Sequence record: NC_049852.1
DNA: 51,643 bases
Direction: 5' to 3' (one strand)
Source of the DNA: Escherichia phage egaa
This document shows, in pieces, positions 821 through 49,804 of the stretch (positions are counted from its first letter, which is position 1; the number at the start of each line of letters is the position of its first letter). The notes beneath the pieces were generated by a model, which was given only the letters and a program-made list of their open reading frames with translations, was not told where the DNA came from and searched no databases. Both the position numbers and the translations under genes were made by a program.

Positions 821-1000
821 GCTCGCCAGGATTGCCGAAAAGGATGCGAGAGGATCGCGTTTCTCTATCCCCTCCACACAAAAAGTTAATCACTTGATTA
901 AAATTGATCAAACTCAAAGTCTCACAATCCAGGCGATCGCGAATGATTTATTCCTGTTATTCCTGATTAATGGAATAGGTGGAATAATAACCAGTAAGCA

Positions 1001-1045
1001 AATAGCACTTTTTGTTAAAACTGAATTGCCCTGATCGGGTACATT
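1001..1045 (+). promoter_or_regulatory. conserved 20-bp element AATAGCACTTTTTGTTAAAA + 21-nt spacer + TACATT (-10-like); putative early promoter
   Basis: exact 20-mer at 1001-1020; ATG of downstream gene at 1083; 11-bp inverted repeat ctgatcgggta/tacccatcag encloses the -10. Confidence 0.6.
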
Positions 1046-1082
1046 AGACACATCGAAACGAGATACCCATCAGGAGATAGCA

Positions 1083-1592
1083 ATGAACATCAGCAAAACC
1101 ACTTTCAACTTTGCAAAGCGTCACGGTCTGGATCTGACTGTTGAGGATTTTGGCGATGTTCTGCAACTCTGCATTTGGGAAGCGGATAACGATTGCGAGT
1201 GGCTTTGCTCTTATCGTATCAATTACGATTGCTTAACCTGGCACGACAATATCTATCTGCCGCAAGAAGTGAAAGAGGAATTGCCAGCAACCATCAACAA
1301 CGAAGTTTTTTTTGCGCAAAGTCCTGAAGTTTATTGCCGAGGAGATCAAGAAATGATTAGTGAAGTGGATTTTGAACTTGCAGAGGCCCAGGTAAGGGCC
1401 AAAAAGATGGGGTTGCGGATCTTGACGGAAACAGTCGAGTTCCCGTCGATGCCGTTCGCATCATTCCATAAAGTCACCGTATTAAGTCGCAAACGCGAGT
1501 GTAACGCTCTAATACCTGTCGGTGATGATAAACGCATGGCTAAATTCATTAACGAGTCATGTGATGTTCTGAAGGCTGTTAAACACGGTTAA
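1083..1592 (+). CDS. hypothetical early protein (169 aa)
   Basis: ORF track; RBS caGGAGatagcaATG; downstream of promoter element. Confidence 0.7.
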   Translation: MNISKTTFNFAKRHGLDLTVEDFGDVLQLCIWEADNDCEWLCSYRINYDCLTWHDNIYLPQEVKEELPATINNEVFFAQSPEVYCRGDQEMISEVDFELAEAQVRAKKMGLRILTETVEFPSMPFASFHKVTVLSRKRECNALIPVGDDKRMAKFINESCDVLKAVKHG

Positions 1593-1611
1593 CAACAAAG
1601 GGGAAATAAAG

Positions 1612-1878
1612 ATGGCGCGAATCAATGCACCTATTCCAGTTAAGCGCAAAGCACGTTTGCTCAATAACGGGTGTTACGCCCTGCGGCCTGCATTTAAGGA
1701 TCGCACCTTTCCGGTTATCGTTAACGTGTCGCACGTAAGCCGTAGCGGGAATCTGGCCTTTGTTAACGGTGAGGATCTGTCGGCGCTTGGATTCTATGGC
1801 GGTATTTACGGTGAGGCGCTTGGATTCTGGATTAAAGATCCGTTAACTGGCGAGCGCGAAATCGAATTCCTGGACTAA
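1612..1878 (+). CDS. hypothetical early protein (88 aa)
   Basis: ORF track; RBS gGGGAaataaagATG. Confidence 0.65.
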   Translation: MARINAPIPVKRKARLLNNGCYALRPAFKDRTFPVIVNVSHVSRSGNLAFVNGEDLSALGFYGGIYGEALGFWIKDPLTGEREIEFLD

Positions 1879-1922
1879 ATAGCACTTTTTGTTAAAACTC
1901 AATCCTCGCGATCCGATATATT
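1878..1922 (+). promoter_or_regulatory. conserved 20-bp element + 22-nt spacer + TATATT; putative early promoter
   Basis: aatagcactttttgttaaaa at 1878-1897, TATATT about 1917-1922; 9-bp inverted repeat aatcctcgc/gcgaggatt flanks -10 and overlaps RBS. Confidence 0.6.
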
Positions 1923-1955
1923 ACACACATCGACAACGAATGCGAGGATTTGAAA

Positions 1956-2108
1956 ATGGTTACTCTGATTACCTGGGAACACGAAAACAGCCAGCCGGAA
2001 GTGCGCGAATTTGAAACTGTAGCGGCATGTTATAACCTGGCGAAAAATGGCGGATTCTATAAGGCGCAAATTGTTAACGAATTTGGAGTTGTTGACTATG
2101 AGTTCTAA
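1956..2108 (+). CDS. small hypothetical protein (50 aa), not in ORF track
   Basis: ATG 1956 with RBS GAGGAtttgaaaATG, 58 nt after element; MVTLITWEHENSQPEVREFETVAACYNLAKNGGFYKAQIVNEFGVVDYEF; stop overlaps start of next gene. Confidence 0.5.
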   Translation: MVTLITWEHENSQPEVREFETVAACYNLAKNGGFYKAQIVNEFGVVDYEF

Positions 2109-2388
2109 GTTTTACAGCTATACCGATACAGTGGATTTTGAGGGGATACAATTGCCCCTCCCGAACATATACCGCTATATCACGCGTGACGAACGCGGAT
2201 TTATTGAAGCGTGGCGCTCAAAGCCTGTGCGTGATCTTGAGTTTGGCGGCTTCCGCTCTCTTGAGGGTGAGTTGCCGATCTGCTTCGGTCATCAAAGCGG
2301 TGAAAATCTTCCGGTTGTTGCGCGTCAGTATCGCAGACACAAGATCACAAGGGCACTTATCTCTTTAACTGGATCTGTTGTTGAATAG
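2098..2388 (+). CDS. hypothetical early protein (96 aa; internal ATG of track ORF 2047-2388)
   Basis: Track ORF start at 2047 lies inside upstream ORF; in-frame ATG at 2098 has GGAG 8 nt upstream; TAG stop lies inside next promoter element. Confidence 0.55.
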   Translation: MSSKFYSYTDTVDFEGIQLPLPNIYRYITRDERGFIEAWRSKPVRDLEFGGFRSLEGELPICFGHQSGENLPVVARQYRRHKITRALISLTGSVVE

Positions 2389-2428
2389 CACTTTTTGTTA
2401 AAAACGGTATGCGCCTGAATGGTATATT
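2384..2428 (+). promoter_or_regulatory. conserved 20-bp element + 22-nt spacer + TGgTATATT (extended -10-like)
   Basis: aatagcactttttgttaaaa 2384-2403 containing stop TAG 2386-2388; TATATT 2423-2428. Confidence 0.6.
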
Positions 2429-2459
2429 ACATCCATCGACAACGAACGAGGATTTAAAG

Positions 2460-2654
2460 ATGGAAAATCAAGTTGATGTTAAAGTTGTACAGCGTGAAAC
2501 CACTCACGAGAAAGGAATCTTTAAGAAAGGCGCTATCATCACCATTGATCTTGAGGATATGGTTGCGTATCACTCCGGCCTGACATGGAACGTTGTTAAA
2601 CATGGCAATGCTTTCAAACTGCGTGGATTCAATACTTTTATGGAGGTTGTGTAA
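2460..2654 (+). CDS. hypothetical early protein (64 aa)
   Basis: In-frame ATG (codon 18 of track ORF 2409-2654) with RBS GAGGAtttaaagATG; track start lies inside promoter element. Confidence 0.6.
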   Translation: MENQVDVKVVQRETTHEKGIFKKGAIITIDLEDMVAYHSGLTWNVVKHGNAFKLRGFNTFMEVV

Positions 2655-3037
2655 TGGCCTACACAAACAGCGATTTTAAAAACTCAACTGAAACAATCAA
2701 GGCACAACTCATTAAACAACGCGCTTATAGATTCTGGCTTGATTATCATGATCTAAGGAAAGAGATTGATAATATTATCAAGACTGGTAGCGCGTTCTGT
2801 TCTAACAGGACGGTTTGGCGCAATATGAATGCGCAGTACGGCCATGGAAAAATTCGTGTATTTGGTGAGGCTGTTGAAGCGTATGTGTTTAGCGCAACAA
2901 AAGCTGTAAGTTTTAACGTTGTTGGCATTAATCAGATGAGACTAATAATATTTCATAATTCCTGGATGATTCCCGTTTCTAATGATCATTATGGCGGAGA
3001 CGGAAAGCGAGCAAATCGCCATAGCTATTTCAACTGA
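2654..3037 (+). CDS. hypothetical early protein (127 aa)
   Basis: ORF track; start overlaps upstream stop (gtgtaATGg). Confidence 0.6.
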   Translation: MAYTNSDFKNSTETIKAQLIKQRAYRFWLDYHDLRKEIDNIIKTGSAFCSNRTVWRNMNAQYGHGKIRVFGEAVEAYVFSATKAVSFNVVGINQMRLIIFHNSWMIPVSNDHYGGDGKRANRHSYFN

Positions 3038-3079
3038 TAGCACAAATTGCTAAACAATATTTCTCAAACCTGATATAGT
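3037..3079 (+). promoter_or_regulatory. variant element ATAGCACAAATTGCTAAACA + 21-nt spacer + TATAGT
   Basis: variant of the 20-mer (GAATTG/AAATTG subfamily) directly after TGA stop 3035-3037; ATG of next gene at 3110. Confidence 0.5.
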
Positions 3080-3109
3080 TACCACACCAAATATAATGAG
3101 GATTGCATA

Positions 3110-3337
3110 ATGAAAGCCAAAATCACTAACATCATGCACACTGTTGATGCACATCACCGCGTCGCCATTAAGATGGATAAATCTTGCGGAATCAACCAGT
3201 TAACAATCACGAGCGGTAAAGGTGTGTTTGTTGTTGACTCGCATCCAGGTAGTAAAATCCGCAAATATACGCGCGAAGAATTGATTAAACTTCTTGAAGA
3301 GAACAGCATGTTCATTGAAAGTTGGAAGGCTATCTAA
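3110..3337 (+). CDS. hypothetical early protein (75 aa)
   Basis: ORF track; RBS aatGAGGAttgcataATG. Confidence 0.65.
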   Translation: MKAKITNIMHTVDAHHRVAIKMDKSCGINQLTITSGKGVFVVDSHPGSKIRKYTREELIKLLEENSMFIESWKAI

Positions 3338-3346
3338 TTAATAAAC

Positions 3347-3370
3347 GGGAGGTTTCGCCTCCCTTTAAAT
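3347..3370 (+). terminator. putative intrinsic terminator (GGGAGG-loop-CCTCCC + T/A tract)
   Basis: hairpin gggaggtttcgcctccc followed by tttaaat immediately after stop of 3110-3337. Confidence 0.45.
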
Positions 3371-3383
3371 AAAGGTGATAATA

Positions 3384-3497
3384 ATGACGAAATTTCTTGA
3401 TATTTTATTTGGTGTGATGATGAGCCTTGCTGGTCTTTTAGTTGTCACTGCTGTTATTGCTACTATTCTGATTGTTATCAAGGAGCTTATGAAATGA
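3384..3497 (+). CDS. small hydrophobic membrane peptide (37 aa), not in ORF track
   Basis: ATG 3384 after aaaGGtGAtaataATG; MTKFLDILFGVMMSLAGLLVVTAVIATILIVIKELMK; stop overlaps next start (ATGA). Confidence 0.5.
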   Translation: MTKFLDILFGVMMSLAGLLVVTAVIATILIVIKELMK

Positions 3498-3718
3498 GCC
3501 AGGACGGATTTTTTGAGCGACTGCAAAAAGCGGAAGATGCTGGGCTGAATAAAGAGGCTGCTCTTGAAGTTGCATATAAGATCAGGACACTTGATGATGC
3601 GTTGGGTGAAATGGATATGGAGCATGAATGCGGTGCTGCATTTGCAGATCCAACGATGATTGTTAATGATTGCGGCTGCAATTTTGATCCTAACTGTCCG
3701 CGATGCTTTCCGTTTTGA
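3494..3718 (+). CDS. hypothetical Cys-rich protein (74 aa)
   Basis: ORF track; RBS AGGAGcttatgaaATG; C-terminal CGCNFDPNCPRC. Confidence 0.65.
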   Translation: MSQDGFFERLQKAEDAGLNKEAALEVAYKIRTLDDALGEMDMEHECGAAFADPTMIVNDCGCNFDPNCPRCFPF

Positions 3719-3727
3719 GGTGATGAA

Positions 3728-4438
3728 ATGTATAAGGGTTTAATTTTCTCTTTGTTTGATGGATCTGGTAAAGCCGTTAAAGATTGGGCTGATGCTGGAT
3801 ATAAATGCATTTGCTTTAATTACGATGATGCTGATCACGGTGATTACCACTCAGTGCGCATAATCCATGACAATATCTTTTACGTTAACGCGTGGATTGA
3901 TGATCTATTCAAATATACCGCAAAACTTGAAAATTGGGGTAAGCCTGATTTTATTATGGCGTTCCCTCCATGCACTAACCTTGCAAATAGCGGATCTCGC
4001 CATTGGGCTAAAAAACGCATTGAGAATCCATCGTTCCAGGATGAAGCCGCCGACACTTGCAAAATAGCGGCGCAAATTGCTGATTATTTCGGTGTTCCGT
4101 ACATGATAGAGAATCCTGTAGGCAAGCTGTCAACGCTATGGCGCAAGCCTGATTATACGTTCCATCCGTGCGATTATGCTGGCTATCTGCCGGAAGATGA
4201 TAAACATCCCGACTTTCCTGATATTATTCCGGCACGGGATCGGTACTTTAAGAAAACATGCCTTTGGACTGGAAACGGATTTGTTATTCCTCCGCGCGCA
4301 ACAATCATCCCTAAAGATGGCGACAAGGATAATCCTGGTTGGGCCAAAACTGGCGGAAAATCGTCTCGCACAAAGATGATCCGCTCCCTCACACCGCGCG
4401 GTTTTGCTCGCGCCGTCTTTGAAGCAAACGCAAAATAG
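3728..4438 (+). CDS. putative DNA methyltransferase (cytosine-C5-like motifs)
   Basis: FSLFDGSG (FxGxG AdoMet motif), FPPC (Pro-Cys catalytic motif), MIENPVG (ENV-like); short for a C5-MTase, family call by motif only. Confidence 0.5.
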   Translation: MYKGLIFSLFDGSGKAVKDWADAGYKCICFNYDDADHGDYHSVRIIHDNIFYVNAWIDDLFKYTAKLENWGKPDFIMAFPPCTNLANSGSRHWAKKRIENPSFQDEAADTCKIAAQIADYFGVPYMIENPVGKLSTLWRKPDYTFHPCDYAGYLPEDDKHPDFPDIIPARDRYFKKTCLWTGNGFVIPPRATIIPKDGDKDNPGWAKTGGKSSRTKMIRSLTPRGFARAVFEANAK

Positions 4439-4478
4439 CACTTTTTGTTAAAAGCCAGGTGTAAAAGCCTGGCATAAT
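4434..4478 (+). promoter_or_regulatory. conserved 20-bp element + 22-nt spacer + CATAAT
   Basis: aatagcactttttgttaaaa 4434-4453 with TAG stop 4436-4438 inside; GC hairpin gccagg-tgtaaaa-cctggc in spacer. Confidence 0.6.
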
Positions 4479-4509
4479 CACTTCACCGAAACGAAAGGAG
4501 AAATAAACG

Positions 4510-4896: not shown

Positions 4897-5114
4897 TCAA
4901 GGCTGAATATCGCTATAAGGTGACTCATTCAGCAACAAAAACCTTCAAGCATGGCGATATAGTCAGGCCAATAAAGAAAACGATGGTTGGATGGCTGATT
5001 GGTCTTTCTTACCACAAATCACTTTATTTTGATTTTGCTGATTCCGTAACCGCGCATTGCCATAGCGCAAGGGAACCAGAAAAAATCTTAGTTAGCATAG
5101 AGCGGATCAAATAG
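4893..5114 (+). CDS. hypothetical early protein (73 aa, GTG start overlapping upstream TGA)
   Basis: ORF track; GTGA overlap; TAG stop inside next element. Confidence 0.5.
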   Translation: MIKAEYRYKVTHSATKTFKHGDIVRPIKKTMVGWLIGLSYHKSLYFDFADSVTAHCHSAREPEKILVSIERIK

Positions 5115-5154
5115 CATTTTTTGTTAAATGCGGGTAGCATTGGTGCGGTATTAT
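5109..5154 (+). promoter_or_regulatory. element variant AATAGCATTTTTTGTTAAAT + 22-nt spacer + TATTAT
   Basis: 5109-5128; hairpin gcggtattattgccgc overlaps -10. Confidence 0.55.
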
Positions 5155-5183
5155 TGCCGCATCAAAAAAAGGAGTTATCATCA

Positions 5184-7162: not shown

Positions 7163-7283
7163 AGACTTCATGCACGCAATGTTAACGCTAATTCATTCTG
7201 ACATGCGAGCGTTTAACATATCAGAGCATAATTTGTGTGATGAGGACGGCGTTTTGTTGGTTACTGTAAAGCGTATCGAATAG
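7089..7283 (+). CDS. possible overlapping small ORF (64 aa) ending inside promoter element
   Basis: ORF track; overlaps 6770-7162 by 74 nt; GGAG 10 nt upstream; its TAG is the TAG of the next element; true start uncertain. Confidence 0.3.
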   Translation: MKNCLRQMLIDKILKFCAVSSISHEDFMHAMLTLIHSDMRAFNISEHNLCDEDGVLLVTVKRIE

Positions 7284-7323
7284 CACTTTTTGTTAAAACT
7301 CCCGATCTCGTATCGGGTATATT
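7279..7323 (+). promoter_or_regulatory. conserved 20-bp element + 22-nt spacer + TATATT
   Basis: aatagcactttttgttaaaa 7279-7298; hairpin cccgat-ctcgt-atcggg in spacer. Confidence 0.6.
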
Positions 7324-7356
7324 TGTTTCATCGGAACGAATATGAGGATTTTAAAA

Positions 7357-10785: not shown

Positions 10786-11487
10786 TTAACTCCGCTTTCT
10801 TGCTCGACGCTCTGCCACCGAAGGGCAAATGTCGCTGATTTTAACGTATCGCGTTTTCTGCTGCTCACCTTCTTTAAGTTCTCGCATGATGAAAATAACG
10901 CTGCCTTTGTTGTTGCCCTGCACTGGTTTACCTGTAAGCGCGGAAGTAAACGCCAGGCGTCCGGTGCGGGAATATTCTGTTCCGTCCTCCTGGTAAACTT
11001 CTCCAGTGATCCAGATGATTTCCGCTGCGCGCTGTTGCGCTTCATAAAACCATCCTGTTGATGTGTCGCAAGGTAACAGTATGTCGATCTGGTTGTTGTG
11101 CTCCATTTGCTCAATCGCCTTCTTAACAAATGGAGTAATATTGCTGTACGGTGGATTAAGCCAGATATGCTTATTACTACCCCACCAACGCTTTAAGCAA
11201 TTTGTTTCCTTGCTGTAGAATTTTTCACATACAGCATTTTCTTTGCTCGCCGCCGCGTCGATGTCATAATCACCGTATTCGCTTTCCATCCATTCGACAA
11301 GCTCAGACGGAGTAGACCACAAATCGCGCACAATGTCCGGCGTATTGCTGCCGTTATAGCGGTTGCCAGTCACTTTGAAATATTGATTTGGTTTAACAGC
11401 CTGGTAATGACCACCAGTAGCAAGAGCATTGCCAATGAATGTTTCGCGTTCTATTTGTTCAAATGTCACTTCGGTTTCTTTGCTCAT
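10786..11487 (-). CDS. dam: DNA N6-adenine methyltransferase (phage Dam-like)
   Basis: NPPY catalytic motif (WLNPPYSNITPF) of amino-MTases; position next to nuclease/helicase as in T1-like phages. Confidence 0.8.
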   Translation of the reverse strand: MSKETEVTFEQIERETFIGNALATGGHYQAVKPNQYFKVTGNRYNGSNTPDIVRDLWSTPSELVEWMESEYGDYDIDAAASKENAVCEKFYSKETNCLKRWWGSNKHIWLNPPYSNITPFVKKAIEQMEHNNQIDILLPCDTSTGWFYEAQQRAAEIIWITGEVYQEDGTEYSRTGRLAFTSALTGKPVQGNNKGSVIFIMRELKEGEQQKTRYVKISDICPSVAERRARKRS

Positions 11488-11520: not shown

Positions 11521-11566
11521 TATTATGGCGCAATCCTTCGCGCCTGTTTTAACAAAAAGTGCTATT
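11521..11566 (-). promoter_or_regulatory. conserved 20-bp element (minus) + 23-nt spacer + ATAATA
   Basis: rc of 11547-11566 exact 20-mer incl. TAG stop of VRR-NUC gene; hairpin ggcgc-gaaggatt-gcgcc; ATG of dam 60 nt downstream. Confidence 0.6.
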
Positions 11567-14040: not shown

Positions 14041-14084
14041 ATAATACACAATCATTAAATCATCGTTTAACAAAAAATGCTATT
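14041..14084 (-). promoter_or_regulatory. element variant (minus) AATAGCATTTTTTGTTAAA + 21-nt spacer + TATTAT; overlaps a plus-strand TATAAT
   Basis: rc of 14066-14084; minus -10 TATTAT = rc of 14041-14046, plus TATAAT at 14039-14044: back-to-back divergent promoters for helicase and 14097 gene. Confidence 0.5.
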
Positions 14085-14096
14085 GGAGAATGAATA

Positions 14097-14570
14097 ATGA
14101 AAGAGCAACGAATCGCAGTATCAACAGGCAAGATTGACAAGCGCACAATTAATGGCAATAACGGAACAAGACGAGGCAAGGATAAGAAGAAGCGCAAGCG
14201 ACCGACAGGTTATTATGTTCTAAAAGATGAGGTGCGTGCCGGGCTAAAAGCGCGACTTGATATCCTTATTGAGTATTACGGAAGTGTATCAGCAATGGCA
14301 AAACGTCTTAACGTTAGCCAGCAAACTGTAAATCAGTGGCGCGTTCGCGGTATGATTTCAGCCGCTGGCGCTCAAAAGGTGCATAACGATTACAAAAAAT
14401 ATGGCTGCCAAGGCTATCGCGCGTCATTCTGCCGTCCAGATCTGCGATTTGATTCCAATGGTAAACCTCTCACAAAGAGATGTGATAAGCGTGAAATGTT
14501 GCGAGTGGTAAGAATGTCAGATTATGAACCTGGCGGATTCCTGTATAAACCTGAAAGCACTAATTGCTAA
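14097..14570 (+). CDS. HTH DNA-binding protein (XRE/Cro-like helix-turn-helix)
   Basis: SVSAMAKRLNVSQQTVNQWRVRGMIS helix-turn-helix; basic N-terminus; RBS GGAGaatgaataATG. Confidence 0.6.
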   Translation: MKEQRIAVSTGKIDKRTINGNNGTRRGKDKKKRKRPTGYYVLKDEVRAGLKARLDILIEYYGSVSAMAKRLNVSQQTVNQWRVRGMISAAGAQKVHNDYKKYGCQGYRASFCRPDLRFDSNGKPLTKRCDKREMLRVVRMSDYEPGGFLYKPESTNC

Positions 14571-14624
14571 AAACAATGCCTGGCATGATGTTATCATCTG
14601 TCAGGCTTTTTGTTTGAGGTGTAT

Positions 14625-21481: not shown

Positions 21482-21562
21482 ATTTATTTCCTCACGTTTA
21501 CTGTTAACTTGTGCGGTGAATTATAACACCGCATTTTTCATTTGTTTAGCTATTTGTGCTGT

Positions 21563-23049: not shown

Positions 23050-23093
23050 GAATAGCACTTTTTGCTAAACGACCGCCGCAAGATCGTGTATAG
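23050..23093 (+). promoter_or_regulatory. element variant AATAGCACTTTTTGCTAAAC + 22-nt spacer + TATAGT
   Basis: 57 nt upstream of lipoprotein gene ATG. Confidence 0.55.
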
Positions 23094-33718: not shown

Positions 33719-33737
33719 ATAGCACTTTTTGTTAAAA
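33719..33737 (+). promoter_or_regulatory. copy of conserved element (ATAGCACTTTTTGTTAAAA) in inverted orientation relative to surrounding late genes
   Basis: plus-strand copy inside minus-strand late operon, 14-32 nt upstream of the G gene start on the opposite strand. Confidence 0.4.
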
Positions 33738-33775
33738 GAATTGATTATGAATCGTGTAGCATGATTGTACAGTAA

Positions 33776-33800
33776 CAAAAAAAGGGGCGCAACGCCCCTT
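33776..33800 (-). terminator. intrinsic terminator after major tail protein gene
   Basis: minus strand ggggcg-ttg-cgcccc followed by TTTTTTTG. Confidence 0.75.
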
Positions 33801-33804
33801 GTGA

Positions 33805-34467
33805 TTATGCTACTTGAGAAGGTAGGAAGGTGAATCGACCTTTCAGTGATACAGACAGGGAAACAGTTTCCATTTCGTTAACTGTGGTCTGTGGGATTTC
33901 GTTAAACGAAAGGACACCAGCCCAGCAACGCATCTCTTTCGCTTTCGGTACATACATGCGAAGCGCTGTCACTTCACCGGATTCGTCTGCTGCACGAAGT
34001 AACGGATAGATCGCGTTATCGTATTCGTGCGCAAAAGTGTATGTCAGAGAAACGGCGCTCTTATAGGTAGGTAACTGCTGTTCCTGGTCGTCTGCCAAAC
34101 ACTGATAAGTATAGTACTGCTGTTCGCCGCCGTCCTGCGACAAATCTTGAACGCAAGGGATCTCAGTCCATGCATCAATTTTGGCAAAAGATGCAGTACC
34201 GCCAGACGGGAAAACGTTCTGATCAGTAGTATCTACACCTTCAAGAGTCACGCTTGTTTCTTCACCGTTAGCCTTTACACGCATAACACGATCAATCAGC
34301 TTGCCCCAAGAAGACGCAGTGATGATCACATAATCACCTTTCTTATACGCAGTGCCGCCAGATGCAACAGTGAAAACAGGATCTTTGGCGTTTGACACTG
34401 CTGTTGCTTGGATTTCGCCGCCTCGATTGCTCTCAACGAAAATTTGAGATCCATTTGGTAAATGCAT
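33805..34467 (-). CDS. major tail (tube) protein
   Basis: 220 aa directly upstream of G/GT chaperone pair; strong terminator downstream; RBS cAAAGGAGtaaaaattATG. Confidence 0.75.
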   Translation of the reverse strand: MHLPNGSQIFVESNRGGEIQATAVSNAKDPVFTVASGGTAYKKGDYVIITASSWGKLIDRVMRVKANGEETSVTLEGVDTTDQNVFPSGGTASFAKIDAWTEIPCVQDLSQDGGEQQYYTYQCLADDQEQQLPTYKSAVSLTYTFAHEYDNAIYPLLRAADESGEVTALRMYVPKAKEMRCWAGVLSFNEIPQTTVNEMETVSLSVSLKGRFTFLPSQVA

Positions 34468-35668: not shown

Positions 35669-36081
35669 TTGCAGCGCCTCCGAAATCCAGTCACAAGGCC
35701 AAATCCACCGCCTTTTTTTCTATTTAAAGTCTCATACATTTTGCCCCACGGAGTTTGTCTAATCTCTTTTCCGCTTGAATCTCCGGACACGCGATCAAAT
35801 GTCTGGCTAAATTCACCAGTCAGGGAAAATGACGCCACGCGCCGTGAGTAACTCTCTACGCTTTCCCCTTCTTGCTTCATAGCTCCATCAAGCGTCATAA
35901 GGTGCAAAGTATAAAGGGCAACCGCTTTTGGATATGATTCTTTAAACCGCTTCTTGCAAACAAACTCCTTTGCAAGCTCAATCCATGCCACCATTAAATC
36001 TGGATCAATCTGCTTCATCGGTGGCGCTAATTTCACGATTTGCTGCGTGATTTCTGCGTCAGTGAAAAATTCATCAACCAT
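35665..36081 (-). CDS. head-tail connector (adaptor) protein
   Basis: 138 aa; first gene of neck module; RBS tGGAGGaaacacaATG. Confidence 0.5.
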
Positions 36082-37477: not shown

Positions 37478-37496
37478 GATAGCATTTTTTGTTAAA
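37478..37496 (+). promoter_or_regulatory. copy of conserved element (ATAGCATTTTTTGTTAAA) in inverted orientation, in leader region of major capsid gene
   Basis: plus-strand copy about 50 nt upstream (opposite strand) of capsid ATG. Confidence 0.4.
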
Positions 37497-37515
37497 CGTG
37501 CAACATAATTTTGTG

Positions 37516-41698: not shown

Positions 41699-41723
41699 AA
41701 AAAGGCTGGATTTACCAGCCTTT
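41699..41723 (-). terminator. hairpin + T-run between terL and portal
   Basis: minus strand aggctgg-taaat-ccagcct followed by TTTTTTATT. Confidence 0.6.
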
Positions 41724-41750
41724 GATTATATATTGGTTTGTCGATTCGTG

Positions 41751-43319
41751 CTATTTGTTCCGCAAACCTGCCAATTTTTTCATTCTTCCTACCGGATCAT
41801 CTGCCATGTTCATTTCAATGTTAACAGCATCAATGATGTTATCAACAATATCATCATGAGGATGCGAATCATCGAATGTAAACGCCGCAACTTCAGCCAG
41901 TATCTCAGCCAGCATAGGGTGGGATTCTGGAAGTGCTACGCGTCCGGCGCGCATTACTGGCGCTGCGTCCATTGCACGAGTAACCTTGTCTTTATCGCGC
42001 TGAACAGGATTGATCTTGATCATGATTTTTTTCGCTGCGCTCTGAATCAAGCCAGTGCCAGACGATTTATCTTCAACATGAATCCTTCTCAACGTTCCGC
42101 ATTCTTTATTGCGCTTCCAGCACTGATTAACGAACGCAACAAAATTAGTCTCAAGGTCTGGCGCTTCCCATTTTCCGCGAACACCATCAATGAAGTAAAC
42201 GCGATCTTTATACATCCCCCAATAACAGATCACGGAGTAGTCGTTAAGCTCCCCTGTTTTCTGCGCGGTATCAACCGTGATAAATGTATATTCAAAGCGA
42301 TCCGGTTTTGGTAGCGTGCATTTCTCGCTGCTTCCGTAATACTGAAACCACTCTGTTTTAAACACGTTGCCGCCAAGCGCAACAGGCTGTTGCTGATACT
42401 GACTAGCAAACGTGTACGGATCAGCATTTCGAAGTGCAAGTAATTCCTCCGCGCTTTCCTTAGCAGGCCAGAATGAATAATGAGCAACACCATCAATCAT
42501 TACTGGCTTACTGGACAAAACATCGCGATCAAACTCAGGCTTTAACCAATCAGGAAGCGTTTCGCGATATTCCTTAGTAACGAGCGCCGGAATACTGACC
42601 ACCTTAAACTGGATGCCGCCCATGCCGCCGTTTGTCATGAACCATGTTGAATCATTGACGTGTAGCCGTTGCTGGACCATTACGATTGGCGTGGTGTCCT
42701 TCATTCGACGTGATCGCACCGTGTTCTTTAGGCGCATGTGTCCGGCTTCGCGCTTCACCTTAGAAAGCATATCATCCGGCTTGTCTGGATCGTCAAGAAC
42801 CAGCATACCAGTAAATCCATCATCCATGTAGCCGCCACGCAGACCAGTAACCTGACCACCGATAGAACGCGAGTTGACTTGTAATTTAACCTTGCCGCCA
42901 TCTGTTACAATCAAATCCTTTGCACTAGCCTTTGCCAGCTTTCCAGGCCATAGCTCCTGCCATTCTGGAGAACCAATAATCTCTTTGATGCGGTTGCTAT
43001 TCTGCTGGACAAGGCCATCACTAAACGAAAGATTAAGATTTCGCACCTTCTTACTTTTCAATGACGCATAAGGTGACATGTGGATCGAGAATATCTCTGT
43101 TTTACCACTACCTGGCGTTATGTTGAAAATTACATTCTGTGACTCGCCTTTGATGATTTTTTCAACTTCGCTGCATAGGTAACTGAAATGCCAGTTTCCC
43201 AAGAACCTTTGCCCCTGGAGAAGTTGAAACCAAATGCGGATCATCTTTTCGAATGAATATTCGCTCATTTCCTTAACGGCGCGTTTTTGCGCCGCTGTTA
43301 AGTCTTCCCAAATCAGCAT
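41751..43319 (-). CDS. terL: terminase large subunit
   Basis: 522 aa; Walker A ITPGSGKTE; C-terminal nuclease-like region; start overlaps terS stop (TAATG). Confidence 0.85.
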   Translation of the reverse strand: MLIWEDLTAAQKRAVKEMSEYSFEKMIRIWFQLLQGQRFLGNWHFSYLCSEVEKIIKGESQNVIFNITPGSGKTEIFSIHMSPYASLKSKKVRNLNLSFSDGLVQQNSNRIKEIIGSPEWQELWPGKLAKASAKDLIVTDGGKVKLQVNSRSIGGQVTGLRGGYMDDGFTGMLVLDDPDKPDDMLSKVKREAGHMRLKNTVRSRRMKDTTPIVMVQQRLHVNDSTWFMTNGGMGGIQFKVVSIPALVTKEYRETLPDWLKPEFDRDVLSSKPVMIDGVAHYSFWPAKESAEELLALRNADPYTFASQYQQQPVALGGNVFKTEWFQYYGSSEKCTLPKPDRFEYTFITVDTAQKTGELNDYSVICYWGMYKDRVYFIDGVRGKWEAPDLETNFVAFVNQCWKRNKECGTLRRIHVEDKSSGTGLIQSAAKKIMIKINPVQRDKDKVTRAMDAAPVMRAGRVALPESHPMLAEILAEVAAFTFDDSHPHDDIVDNIIDAVNIEMNMADDPVGRMKKLAGLRNK

Positions 43320-45863: not shown

Positions 45864-45894
45864 TTTTATTTCCTCTGTTTCGCTTCAATGAGGA

Positions 45895-45940
45895 CACTTT
45901 AACAAATGCCCTCGCGGAAGTTTTAACAAAAAGTGCTATT
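45895..45940 (-). promoter_or_regulatory. conserved 20-bp element (minus orientation); -10 not clearly assignable
   Basis: rc of 45921-45940 = aatagcactttttgttaaaa overlapping the stop of 45939-46226. Confidence 0.5.
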
Positions 45941-47241: not shown

Positions 47242-47286
47242 ATTATAGCGAGGCATTGCGCCCCGCTTTTAGCAATTCGTGCTATT
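47242..47286 (-). promoter_or_regulatory. variant element AATAGCACGAATTGCTAAAA + hairpin + TATAAT
   Basis: rc of 47267-47286 incl. TAG stop of kinase gene; TATAAT = rc of 47242-47247; ATG of 46809-47210 57 nt downstream. Confidence 0.55.
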
Positions 47287-48512: not shown

Positions 48513-48543
48513 GATTTAATCCTCGTTTGTTGTCGATGGGCTT

Positions 48544-48588
48544 ACTATACCGCAAGCCCGATAATCTGTTTTTGCAAAAAGTGCTACT
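48544..48588 (-). promoter_or_regulatory. variant element AGTAGCACTTTTTGCAAAAA + 22-nt spacer + TATAGT
   Basis: rc of 48569-48588 incl. TAG stop of small ORF; leader CATCGACAACAAACGAGGA conserved. Confidence 0.55.
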
Positions 48589-49731: not shown

Positions 49732-49760
49732 CGTTTTATCTCCTTCGTTGAAAGTGAGGC

Positions 49761-49804
49761 CATTATACTTGGCCCCACATTTGAGTTTTAACAATTCGTG
49801 CTAT
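49761..49804 (-). promoter_or_regulatory. variant element AATAGCACGAATTGTTAAAA + spacer + TATAAT
   Basis: rc of 49785-49804; TATAAT = rc of 49761-49766. Confidence 0.55.

Follow-up and report, generated by a model that had tools for sequence, protein, structure and literature searches.

Stem-loops in the repeat-type promoters of Escherichia phage egaa and their predicted action on read-through RNA

The DNA analysed here (the window) is the 51,643-nucleotide sequence record NC_049852.1 from Escherichia phage egaa and amounts to nearly the entire genome of a T1-like phage. Its positions 900-4500 are collinear with, and 98.6% identical to, phage vB_EcoS_G29-2 (Drexlerviridae, Tempevirinae, Hanrivervirus). 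The window carries about 20 promoter elements that start with a copy of a direct repeat (DR), and many of these elements have a stem-loop in the spacer between the DR and the -10 hexamer, or around the hexamer. We find that the stems are probably structures of the sense RNA that act on transcripts reading through from the upstream gene. What they do there is less certain, and on the sequence evidence we lean slightly towards promoter-embedded terminators, attenuators or 3′-end-protecting stem-loops for the upstream transcript. The initial annotation had pointed out spacer hairpins in most copies and two inverted repeats that bracket the -10, and had suggested that they either extrude as cruciforms or occlude the ribosome-binding site (RBS). 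The hairpins that it quoted and both inverted repeats are present, with sequences and coordinates right within 1 nt, but neither proposed action is supported for the elements in general.

Stems between the repeat and the start site

The 19-mer ATAGCACTTTTTGTTAAAA is found in the window in 17 copies at up to three mismatches (0.03 expected), and a looser pattern that leaves the known variable positions free gives 23 matches, one of which (27822, within a gene) is probably spurious. The DRs are oriented with transcription, and the distance from their start to the start codon is 62-99 nt, mostly 73-77 nt. The consensus in this phage family is that of phage TLS, for which a 2024 re-annotation described a 21-nt direct repeat, aaATAGCACnnnTTGnTAAAA, in 21 copies, lying in the same orientation as transcription ∼76 nt 5′ of start codons, and said to be present also in T1, Rtp and Rogue1 (PMC11447400). 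In order to count family-wide, 120 related contigs were picked from IMG/VR by exact match to the 19-mer; contigs and window together gave 514-533 unique elements, which were reduced to the 348 non-redundant elements on which the family-wide counts rest. Orthologous promoters were defined solely by the homology of the flanking genes.

Offsets are counted from the start of the repeat. In the profile of the collected elements the repeat is near-invariant, and offsets 19-35 and 44-48 carry almost no information. The -10 hexamer lies 19 nt after the DR, at offsets 38-43 (T.67 A.87 T.76 A.63 A.56 T.88). Offset 36 (position -14) is a G in 84% of the elements and offset 35 a T in 43%, with TG in 41% (e.g. 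4470-4471 and 2420-2421). C49 is present in 70% and A50 in 80%, and a CA start is predicted 7 nt past the hexamer. A DR at -50 to -32, a 19-nt spacer, an extended -10 (G-14, TAnnnT) and a CA start make up what reads as the signature of a σ70 extended -10 promoter. The best -35-like hexamer (TTGTTA or TTGCTA) is placed at an abnormal 22 bp from the -10, hence the DR is probably not an ordinary -35; it probably acts via something besides sigma region 4, perhaps a phage factor. The DR's own TGnTAAAAC was considered as an alternative extended -10 and rejected: it lacks the -7 T, the start would fall inside the spacer hairpins, and the conserved downstream hexamer, G-14 and CA start would be left unexplained. 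In addition, the predicted transcripts of most early copies open with a conserved ATCGAAACGA (or ATCGACAACGA) at offsets 50-59, 5′ of the Shine-Dalgarno (SD) sequence, as at 1052-1061, 1929-1938 and 7330-7339.

The elements are tightly joined to the gene before them. In 144 of the 258 elements that follow a gene, that gene stops at the DR's own TAG (bases 2-4; in the window e.g. 2385-2388, 4435-4438, 5111-5114 and 7280-7283); the TAA at +14 is the stop in 28 more, and in 58 the stop lies 2-3 nt before the repeat. The end of the gene therefore overlaps the next promoter, and apart from the promoter there is zero intergenic space.

To classify the elements, the best single helix (dG ≤ -5) of each was compared with that of block shuffles. 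A stem starting in the spacer was detected in 76% of the 348 elements and in 41% of the shuffles. No helix was found in 85 elements (206 in the shuffles); the helix was within the spacer in 97 (44), had its 3′ arm overlapping the -10 in 65 (10), enclosed the -10 in 81 (40), and had its 3′ arm beyond offset 57, the long-range type, in 20 (49). In the window, a spacer minimum free energy of -7.5 or below was reached by 5 of the 17 strict copies against 0.57 expected, and five such copies were seen in 0 of 1000 shuffles. Spacer shuffles, GC-matched genomic 23-mers and block shuffles rule out chance or composition as the source of the stems.

The stem is conserved and its sequence is not. The arms of the 121 distinct hairpin spacers are unrelated in sequence, and orthologous promoters keep the stem while changing its letters. 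After the VRR-NUC gene (orthologues of copy 11565) a hairpin is present in 25 of 25 elements with at least five stem sequences (GGCGC/GCGCC, GCCGG/CCGGC, GCCGG/CTGGC, CCCGC/GCGGG and CCCGGC/GCCGGG), and the orthologues of copy 5111 have TGCGG/CCGCA, GTTGCCG/CGGCAAC, GGTTGACC/GGTCAACC and GGTTCCGG/CCGGAACC. In an alignment of 18 orthologous spacer hairpins 88.9% of the cells are paired and compensatory changes are seen at five of seven pairs; the alignment has a covariation score of 0.505, compared with 0.207 ± 0.039 for shuffles, none of 500 of which reached it, and registers slid along the alignment score at most 0.098. With the -10-enclosing stems, RNAalifold gave compensatory changes in three of eight pairs, a result weakened by register shifts. 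The position of the stem relative to the -10 shifts between orthologous promoters. No Rfam family matched at its gathering score anywhere in the window.

The spacers are also rich in GATC, the Dam site, which occurs in 64 of 348 (18%, ∼6% expected), clustered at spacer positions 3 and 12 (e.g. 1033-1036, 1911-1914, 7304-7307 and 23083-23086), and the phage encodes a Dam methylase (10786-11487, minus strand). Regulation by Dam was discarded: CCGG, ATCG and CGAT are equally enriched, so that GATC is probably a by-product of GATCGGG-type arms.

The stems depend on the context upstream. Stems of dG ≤ -7 are carried by 197 of the 258 elements abutted by a co-directional upstream open reading frame (ORF) of at least 60 codons, but by 8 of the 31 without one (76% vs 26%; odds ratio 9.3, p = 4e-8; shuffles, 12%). 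The same holds in the window, where 13 of 17 tandem copies have a hairpin and none of six non-tandem matches does (Fisher p = 0.002), these six being 1002, 14083, 23052, 33719 and 37479, which are unit heads or orphans, and the probably spurious 27822. The predicted start (offset 50) lies past the spacer hairpins, and at or past the 3′ arm of the -10-enclosing stems. Since one arm is upstream of the predicted start, only RNA reading through from upstream can fold these stems.

The two strands are also not equivalent. Under a mismatch scoring that treats G.T and A.C identically, G.T outnumbers A.C by 26 to 10 in the spacer stems (p = 0.011) and by 89 to 19 in the -10-enclosing stems (p = 5e-12), 115 to 29 in total, although the base composition predicts more A.C. 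Among 31 four-base loops, 17 are GNRA and 4 UNCG on the sense strand, and none are on the antisense strand. The sense RNA fold is better than the antisense fold in 235 elements, and worse in 105 (p = 2e-16).

These asymmetries bear on the idea that supercoil-driven cruciforms alter the spacing or accessibility of the -10, as the initial annotation had it. The space between DR and -10 is precisely where the stems sit, and the -35-like TTGTTA is at an abnormal 22 bp, both of which speak for such a device. A cruciform, however, needs both strands paired, and the stems are tuned for the sense RNA only: the complementary strand would bear A.C mismatches, and the loops are optimised on the sense strand. 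A promoter-intrinsic DNA device should not depend on the upstream context either, yet the stems track a co-directional upstream gene and are absent from the promoters that head transcription units. Furthermore, their position varies among orthologues, and full extrusion would over-shorten the spacing. Stems of 5-9 bp with loops of 4-8 nt are poor cruciform formers. We therefore consider the DNA-level model very improbable, and it is likely that the stems are sense-RNA structures acting on read-through transcripts.

Proposed action on the upstream transcript

According to the reading that we lean towards, the hairpins would fold in sense RNA reading through from the upstream gene, RNA initiated at the promoter would lack them, and their role would be to end, attenuate or 3′-protect the upstream transcript. 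With the upstream stop codon usually inside the DR, no intergenic room is left, so RNA signals of the upstream transcript must occupy the spacer and the discriminator, the sole free positions. In most copies the U/A-rich -10 and discriminator would act as a poor U-tract, and a minority have a real T-run. On the sense strand 19 of 348 elements have a d'Aubenton-Carafa d score above 0; on the antisense strand there are 5, and in shuffles 0. Within the window the sites that reach it are 14554 and 41754, and copies 7280 and 10545 pass a lenient scan only. A hairpin followed by TTTT is present in 8 of 99 hairpin spacers, one example being TTAAAA-CCCGC-TTCG-GCGGG-TTTTG-TATTAT. In ∼5% of the elements, then, the same slot holds unmistakable terminators, and there is a continuum from the weaker stems to true terminators.

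Terminators have been called at such sites by other annotators, in G29-2 (the equivalent of 4454-4473), in TLS (T62 abuts DR12 and T57 follows DR10) and in T1. In the T1 record (AY216660), the annotated rho-independent terminators 41978-42000 and 35930-35969 lie inside the repeat-type elements 41956-42000 and 35995-35930, and one of the two fills the spacer and the other wraps the -10. The early-region copies of T1 have mostly -10-enclosing stems.

Several points weigh against this reading. A canonical U-tract is absent from ∼95% of the stems, and the T content past the stem is only slightly raised (3.5 vs 2.9 T at offsets 39-48). The sequence after the -10-enclosing stems, AUCGAAAC, is not U-rich; termination is a weak fit for these stems, and a 3′-exonuclease barrier or a processing role fits as well. 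A stem is still carried by 26% of the elements that have no upstream ORF, against 12% of shuffles. The start site is a prediction from the sequence profile, unmapped, and no RNA 5′ or 3′ end data for T1-like phages were found in the literature searched. Finally, the elements share ancestry and are not independent, which makes the p-values optimistic.

Other RNA-level explanations were considered and set aside. Canonical terminators do not serve as a general explanation, as only 5% of the elements qualify. RNase III sites were rejected by reasoning: such sites need a helix of ∼20 bp, and the stems, at 5-11 bp, are too short. RNase E cleavage in the AU-rich repeat, with the hairpin protecting the new 5′ end, was also rejected by reasoning only, because the hairpin would be ∼13 nt from that end. 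Terminators on the antisense strand (hairpin plus TTTTAAC on the other strand) have d above 0 in 5 of 348 elements, and the strand asymmetry is opposite to the one that they would need.

The main rival is that the hairpins are RNA stability or processing elements only, that is, intercistronic blocks to 3′ exonucleases that leave RNA polymerase unaffected. This rival draws on the same RNA-level evidence as the reading that includes termination and attenuation, and sequence alone does not separate the two. That most stems lack a U-tract speaks for it, as does the finding that in orthologous promoters the stem may be anywhere between the DR and the SD, which suits a barrier over a terminator. On the other hand, canonical terminators occupy the same slot in ∼5% of the elements, and T is slightly enriched past the spacer hairpins. 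We regard it as a possible explanation, though not a probable one.

The palindromes could instead be operators of a dimeric phage or host regulator, or the antisense terminators mentioned above. In support of this, a scan flagged 11527-11544 (plus strand) as terminator-like on the antisense strand, and a 2026 preprint notes that terminator palindromes can double as transcription-factor sites (10.64898/2026.08.19.745784). Nevertheless, 121 different stem sequences offer no common binding site, d is above 0 in 19 elements on the sense strand and in 5 on the antisense strand, and both the G.U excess and the loop types point to the sense strand. This alternative is extremely unlikely.

The two inverted repeats flagged in the initial annotation address a further alternative, a translation switch that senses the promoter of origin: the stems would hide the RBS in read-through RNA, and the gene would be translated only from the transcript of its own promoter. 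The rightward early cluster opens with a promoter element whose DR, ATAGCACTTTTTGTTAAAA, is at 1002-1020 (plus strand), with the -10 TACATT at 1040-1045 and the predicted start at A1052; this element has no upstream ORF (22 codons). An interrupted inverted repeat with a one-base bulge, CCTGAT(C)GGGTA / TACCCATCAGG (1030-1041 / 1064-1074, plus strand), brackets the -10 and covers the SD AGGAG, and its 5′ arm is upstream of the predicted start. The fold of 1019-1088 has -16.9 kcal/mol (z -3.4). In the second element the DR is at 1879-1897 (plus strand), 3 nt after the stop of a 101-codon ORF, the -10 TATATT at 1917-1922, the predicted start at A1929 and the ATG at 1955. Here the inverted repeat AATCCTCGCG / TGCGAGGATT (1901-1910 / 1941-1950, plus strand), with nine perfect pairs and a G.U, spans the -10 and the start site, and the SD GAGGA is paired in it; the fold of 1896-1960 has -16.7 kcal/mol (z -3.1).

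The folds of the read-through RNAs thus cover the SD. The transcripts of the two promoters themselves, 1052-1088 and 1929-1960, are predicted to be unstructured (-1.1 and -1.9 kcal/mol, z ∼+0.5), and as the 5′ arms (1030-1041 and 1901-1910) lie upstream of the -10 and of the predicted start, these transcripts cannot form the RBS-occluding structure. Occlusion of the RBS by a 5′ untranslated region (UTR) structure, as the initial annotation proposed, therefore fails for own transcripts and stands for the two flagged copies in read-through RNA only. In the read-through RNA of copy 1879, the SD is unpaired with a probability of 0.0, against 0.38 with a shuffled spacer. For copy 1002, SD accessibility is below that of shuffles in all nine unique orthologous elements (∼6 distinct spacers), each effect being weak (p = 0.13-0.30), and the arms differ among orthologues (CCTGA-TGG/CCA-TCAGG, TCTGATT/AATCAGG, TCCGGTT/AACCGGA and TCCTC/GAGGA).

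The family as a whole behaves differently. Spacer and discriminator do not lower SD accessibility across the family (0.417 native vs 0.392 shuffled), and spacer-to-SD helices, the long-range type, number 20 among the 348 elements and 49 among shuffles, so that long-range spacer-to-RBS repeats are not a family feature and general RBS occlusion was rejected. Furthermore, copy 1002 has no upstream gene as a source of read-through RNA. The 1879 repeat is kept in the two closest relatives only, hence in three close relatives in all, and distant orthologues have other hairpin types at the same site, either spacer hairpins or -10-enclosing stems. A general switch of this kind is improbable. Copies 1002 and 1879 are a rarer variant with the SD region as the 3′ arm, in which the RBS would be hidden in read-through RNA and exposed in RNA initiated at the promoter.

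Combining these readings, each gene would have two RNA isoforms: read-through RNA would be stopped, trimmed or (in copies like 1002 and 1879) masked and the RNA initiated at the promoter would be free of the hairpin, and this may amount to a start-site-gated insulation across the Drexlerviridae, a proposal that we put forward tentatively. If true, it lets ∼20 back-to-back promoters work with zero intergenic space, and it could also bring about the switch from one temporal class of expression to the next in a phage with neither an RNA polymerase nor a sigma factor of its own.

Individual copies and neighbouring features

In the window, the hairpin is confined to the spacer in 6 or 7 of the ∼20 copies (4435, 7280, 10545, 11565, 47285 and 51322; the one at 1002 is weak, -6.0, and not significant), and in 13 a hairpin starts there. 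That most copies have a spacer hairpin is thus overstated for stems confined to the spacer, and holds only when stems wrapping the -10 are counted. In seven copies (5111, 14554, 21562, 41754, 45939, 48587 and 49804) the stem begins in the spacer's 3′ half and either surrounds or overlaps the -10, with -11.7 to -16.5 kcal/mol and z of -3.9 to -5.3; its 3′ arm is the discriminator to about +5. This class was not named in the initial annotation, yet it fits the title given there, according to which hairpins and repeats enclose the -10 region. Copies 2385, 3037, 14083, 23052, 33719, 37479 and 50859 have no stem.

Among the spacer hairpins on the plus strand, GCCAGGT-GTAAAA-GCCTGGC at 4454-4473 (DR 4435-4453; -13.7 kcal/mol, z -4.5) ends in a C that is also the first base of the -10 CATAAT. 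The stop of the upstream 239-codon gene is the TAG of this DR, and the G29-2 record lists the equivalent hairpin as an ARNold terminator. The hairpin CCCGAT-CTCGT-ATCGGG at 7301-7317 (DR 7280-7298), followed by TATATTTGTTT, is terminator-like in the scan and has an orthologue with CCCGAC/GTCGGG. On the minus strand, GCCCGGC-CTTGT-GTCGGGC at 10525-10507 (DR 10545-10527; -13.0, z -3.1), followed by ATAATTATTT, was also flagged as terminator-like by the scan. The other spacer hairpins on this strand are GGCGCGA-AGGA-TTGCGCC at 11544-11527 (DR 11565-11547), AGCGGGGCG/TGCCTCGCT at 47267-47247 (element 47247-47285, with a DR of the GAA subtype; -14.2 kcal/mol), and GCCAGG-CGCAAAA-CCTGGC at 51302-51284 (DR 51322-51304; -10.8, z -3.2).

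Of the stems that reach the -10, one on the plus strand is the 11-bp TTGGTGCGGTA/TGCCGCATCAA at 5140-5165 (DR 5111-5129; -16.5 kcal/mol, z -4.7), which encloses the TTAT of the -10 TATTAT and whose 3′ arm is the discriminator up to +5. The DR variant AAAGCACTAATTGCTAAAA at 14554-14572 (plus strand) is followed at 14578-14606 by the stem GCCTGGCA/TGTCAGGC and then by TTTTTGTTTG, the element extending to 14616. By its sequence this stem is a canonical terminator, predicted to wrap around the -10 TATCAT; the d score is +22 to +37 for this site and its orthologues, and the homologous T1 site is annotated as a rho-independent terminator. On the minus strand, a DR variant in element 21512-21562 has the stem TGCGGTG/CACCGCA at 21533-21512, with the -10 in its loop (-11.7 kcal/mol, reached in 0 of 200 shuffles). 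The element 41701-41754 combines a degenerate DR with AAAGGCTGG/CCAGCCTTT at 41723-41701 and then TTTTATT, a predicted canonical terminator where the -10 would sit. The remaining three are also on the minus strand: GAGGGCATTT/AAGTGTCCTC at 45913-45890 overlaps the -10 TAAAGT (element 45890-45939; -14.2 kcal/mol, z -5.2), GGGCTTGC/GTAAGCCC at 48559-48538 encloses part of the -10 TATAGT (element 48538-48587; -14.9 kcal/mol, z -5.0), and GTGGGGCCA/TGGCCTCAC at 49778-49754 encloses the -10 (element 49754-49804; -15.5 kcal/mol, z -5.3).

The copy without hairpin at 14065-14083 (minus strand) heads the transcription unit of the helicase, and those at 23052-23070, 33719-33737 and 37479-37497 (plus strand) likewise have none. 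Copy 50859-50786 (minus strand) has, in place of a spacer hairpin, a strong hairpin, GGGCGGCACGGCGTCGCCC, in its predicted 5′ UTR, and its leader is unusually long, with the start codon 99 nt past the repeat. The repeats at 33719-33813 and 37479-37497 (plus strand) are orphans in the minus-strand late region. Copy 33719 would fire into the hairpin GGGGCGCAACGCCCC (33784-33798), a minus-strand terminator that is flanked by a 14-nt inverted repeat (33756-33769 / 33800-33813). This arrangement, which is conserved in relatives, may yield a short antisense RNA.

The divergent early clusters are separated by a 570-bp non-coding region (430-1000), in which GTTAT/ATAAC motifs occur more than 10 times, facing either way, together with an inverted repeat TTATTCCTGTTATTCC / GGAATAGGTGGAATAA (948-963 / 972-987). 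Part of the region is conserved in relatives, and it may serve as an origin or as an array of regulator-binding sites. At 467-438 (minus strand) there is a near-consensus σ70 promoter, TTGACA-18-GATAAT (11 of 12 positions), leftward into a gene that starts near 405. It is plausible, from its sequence, that this is an immediate-early promoter for the host RNA polymerase, upstream of the chain of repeat promoters, which goes on at the window's other end.

Relation to known systems

What the T1-family repeat does has been a matter of debate ever since the publication of the T1 genome. The TLS paper offers three proposals, a stoperator, an enhancer-binding site or an UP element, none of them settled, and has no mention of hairpins, of the fixed 19-nt distance to an extended -10 or of the stop codon in the repeat (PMC11447400). 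It lists terminators T62 and T57 beside DR12 and DR10 and draws no link between them (PMC11447400). The elements described here share with the T1 and TLS repeat the consensus, the orientation, the distance to the start codon and the ∼20 copies per genome. The repeat is thus already known; the hairpin layer, its RNA signature and the link to the upstream gene are not described in the literature searched. The analysis gives the repeat a concrete anatomy: the upstream stop codon lies inside it, and after it come 19 nt of free spacer, an extended -10 and a start site. A further yield is a set of ∼350 natural variants of coupled elements, terminators around the -10 included, which are possible compact insulator parts.

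The middle promoters of phage T4 likewise have a phage-specific upstream box in place of the normal -35, together with a good -10. They consist of a MotA box at -30 and a σ70 -10, whereas the DR is at -50 to -32 and has a different sequence. Classical intrinsic terminators, among them those of the late region of these phages, are alike in having a GC-rich stem and GNRA or UUCG loops; they differ in the U-tract, in whose place the phage elements mostly have the -10 hexamer and the discriminator. Intercistronic stabilising stem-loops are also GC-rich stems without a U-tract that lie between co-transcribed genes and act on the upstream segment, but unlike the phage stems they are not built into a promoter. 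Known mRNA-stabilising stem-loops are the REP sequences in malEFG, the hairpins of the puf operon and the 3′ hairpins left by RNase III in T7 early RNA.

The closest framework is that of the promoter-coupled terminators between tandem bacterial genes, proposed in 2026. Their RNA 3′ ends fall ∼10 bp, and within 35 bp, ahead of the next start, and weak terminators become stronger when the promoter is occupied (Fletcher et al., bioRxiv 10.64898/2026.08.19.745784). In both systems a stem-loop overlaps the promoter of the next tandem gene, the stems are, or in the phage would be, weak terminators, and the intergenic space is compact. In the bacterial elements a T-tract separates the stem from the -10, and the stem also serves as the -35. 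In the phage elements, which are known from sequence alone, the stem fills the spacer or wraps the -10, the T-tract is usually missing, and the upstream determinant would be a phage-specific repeat.

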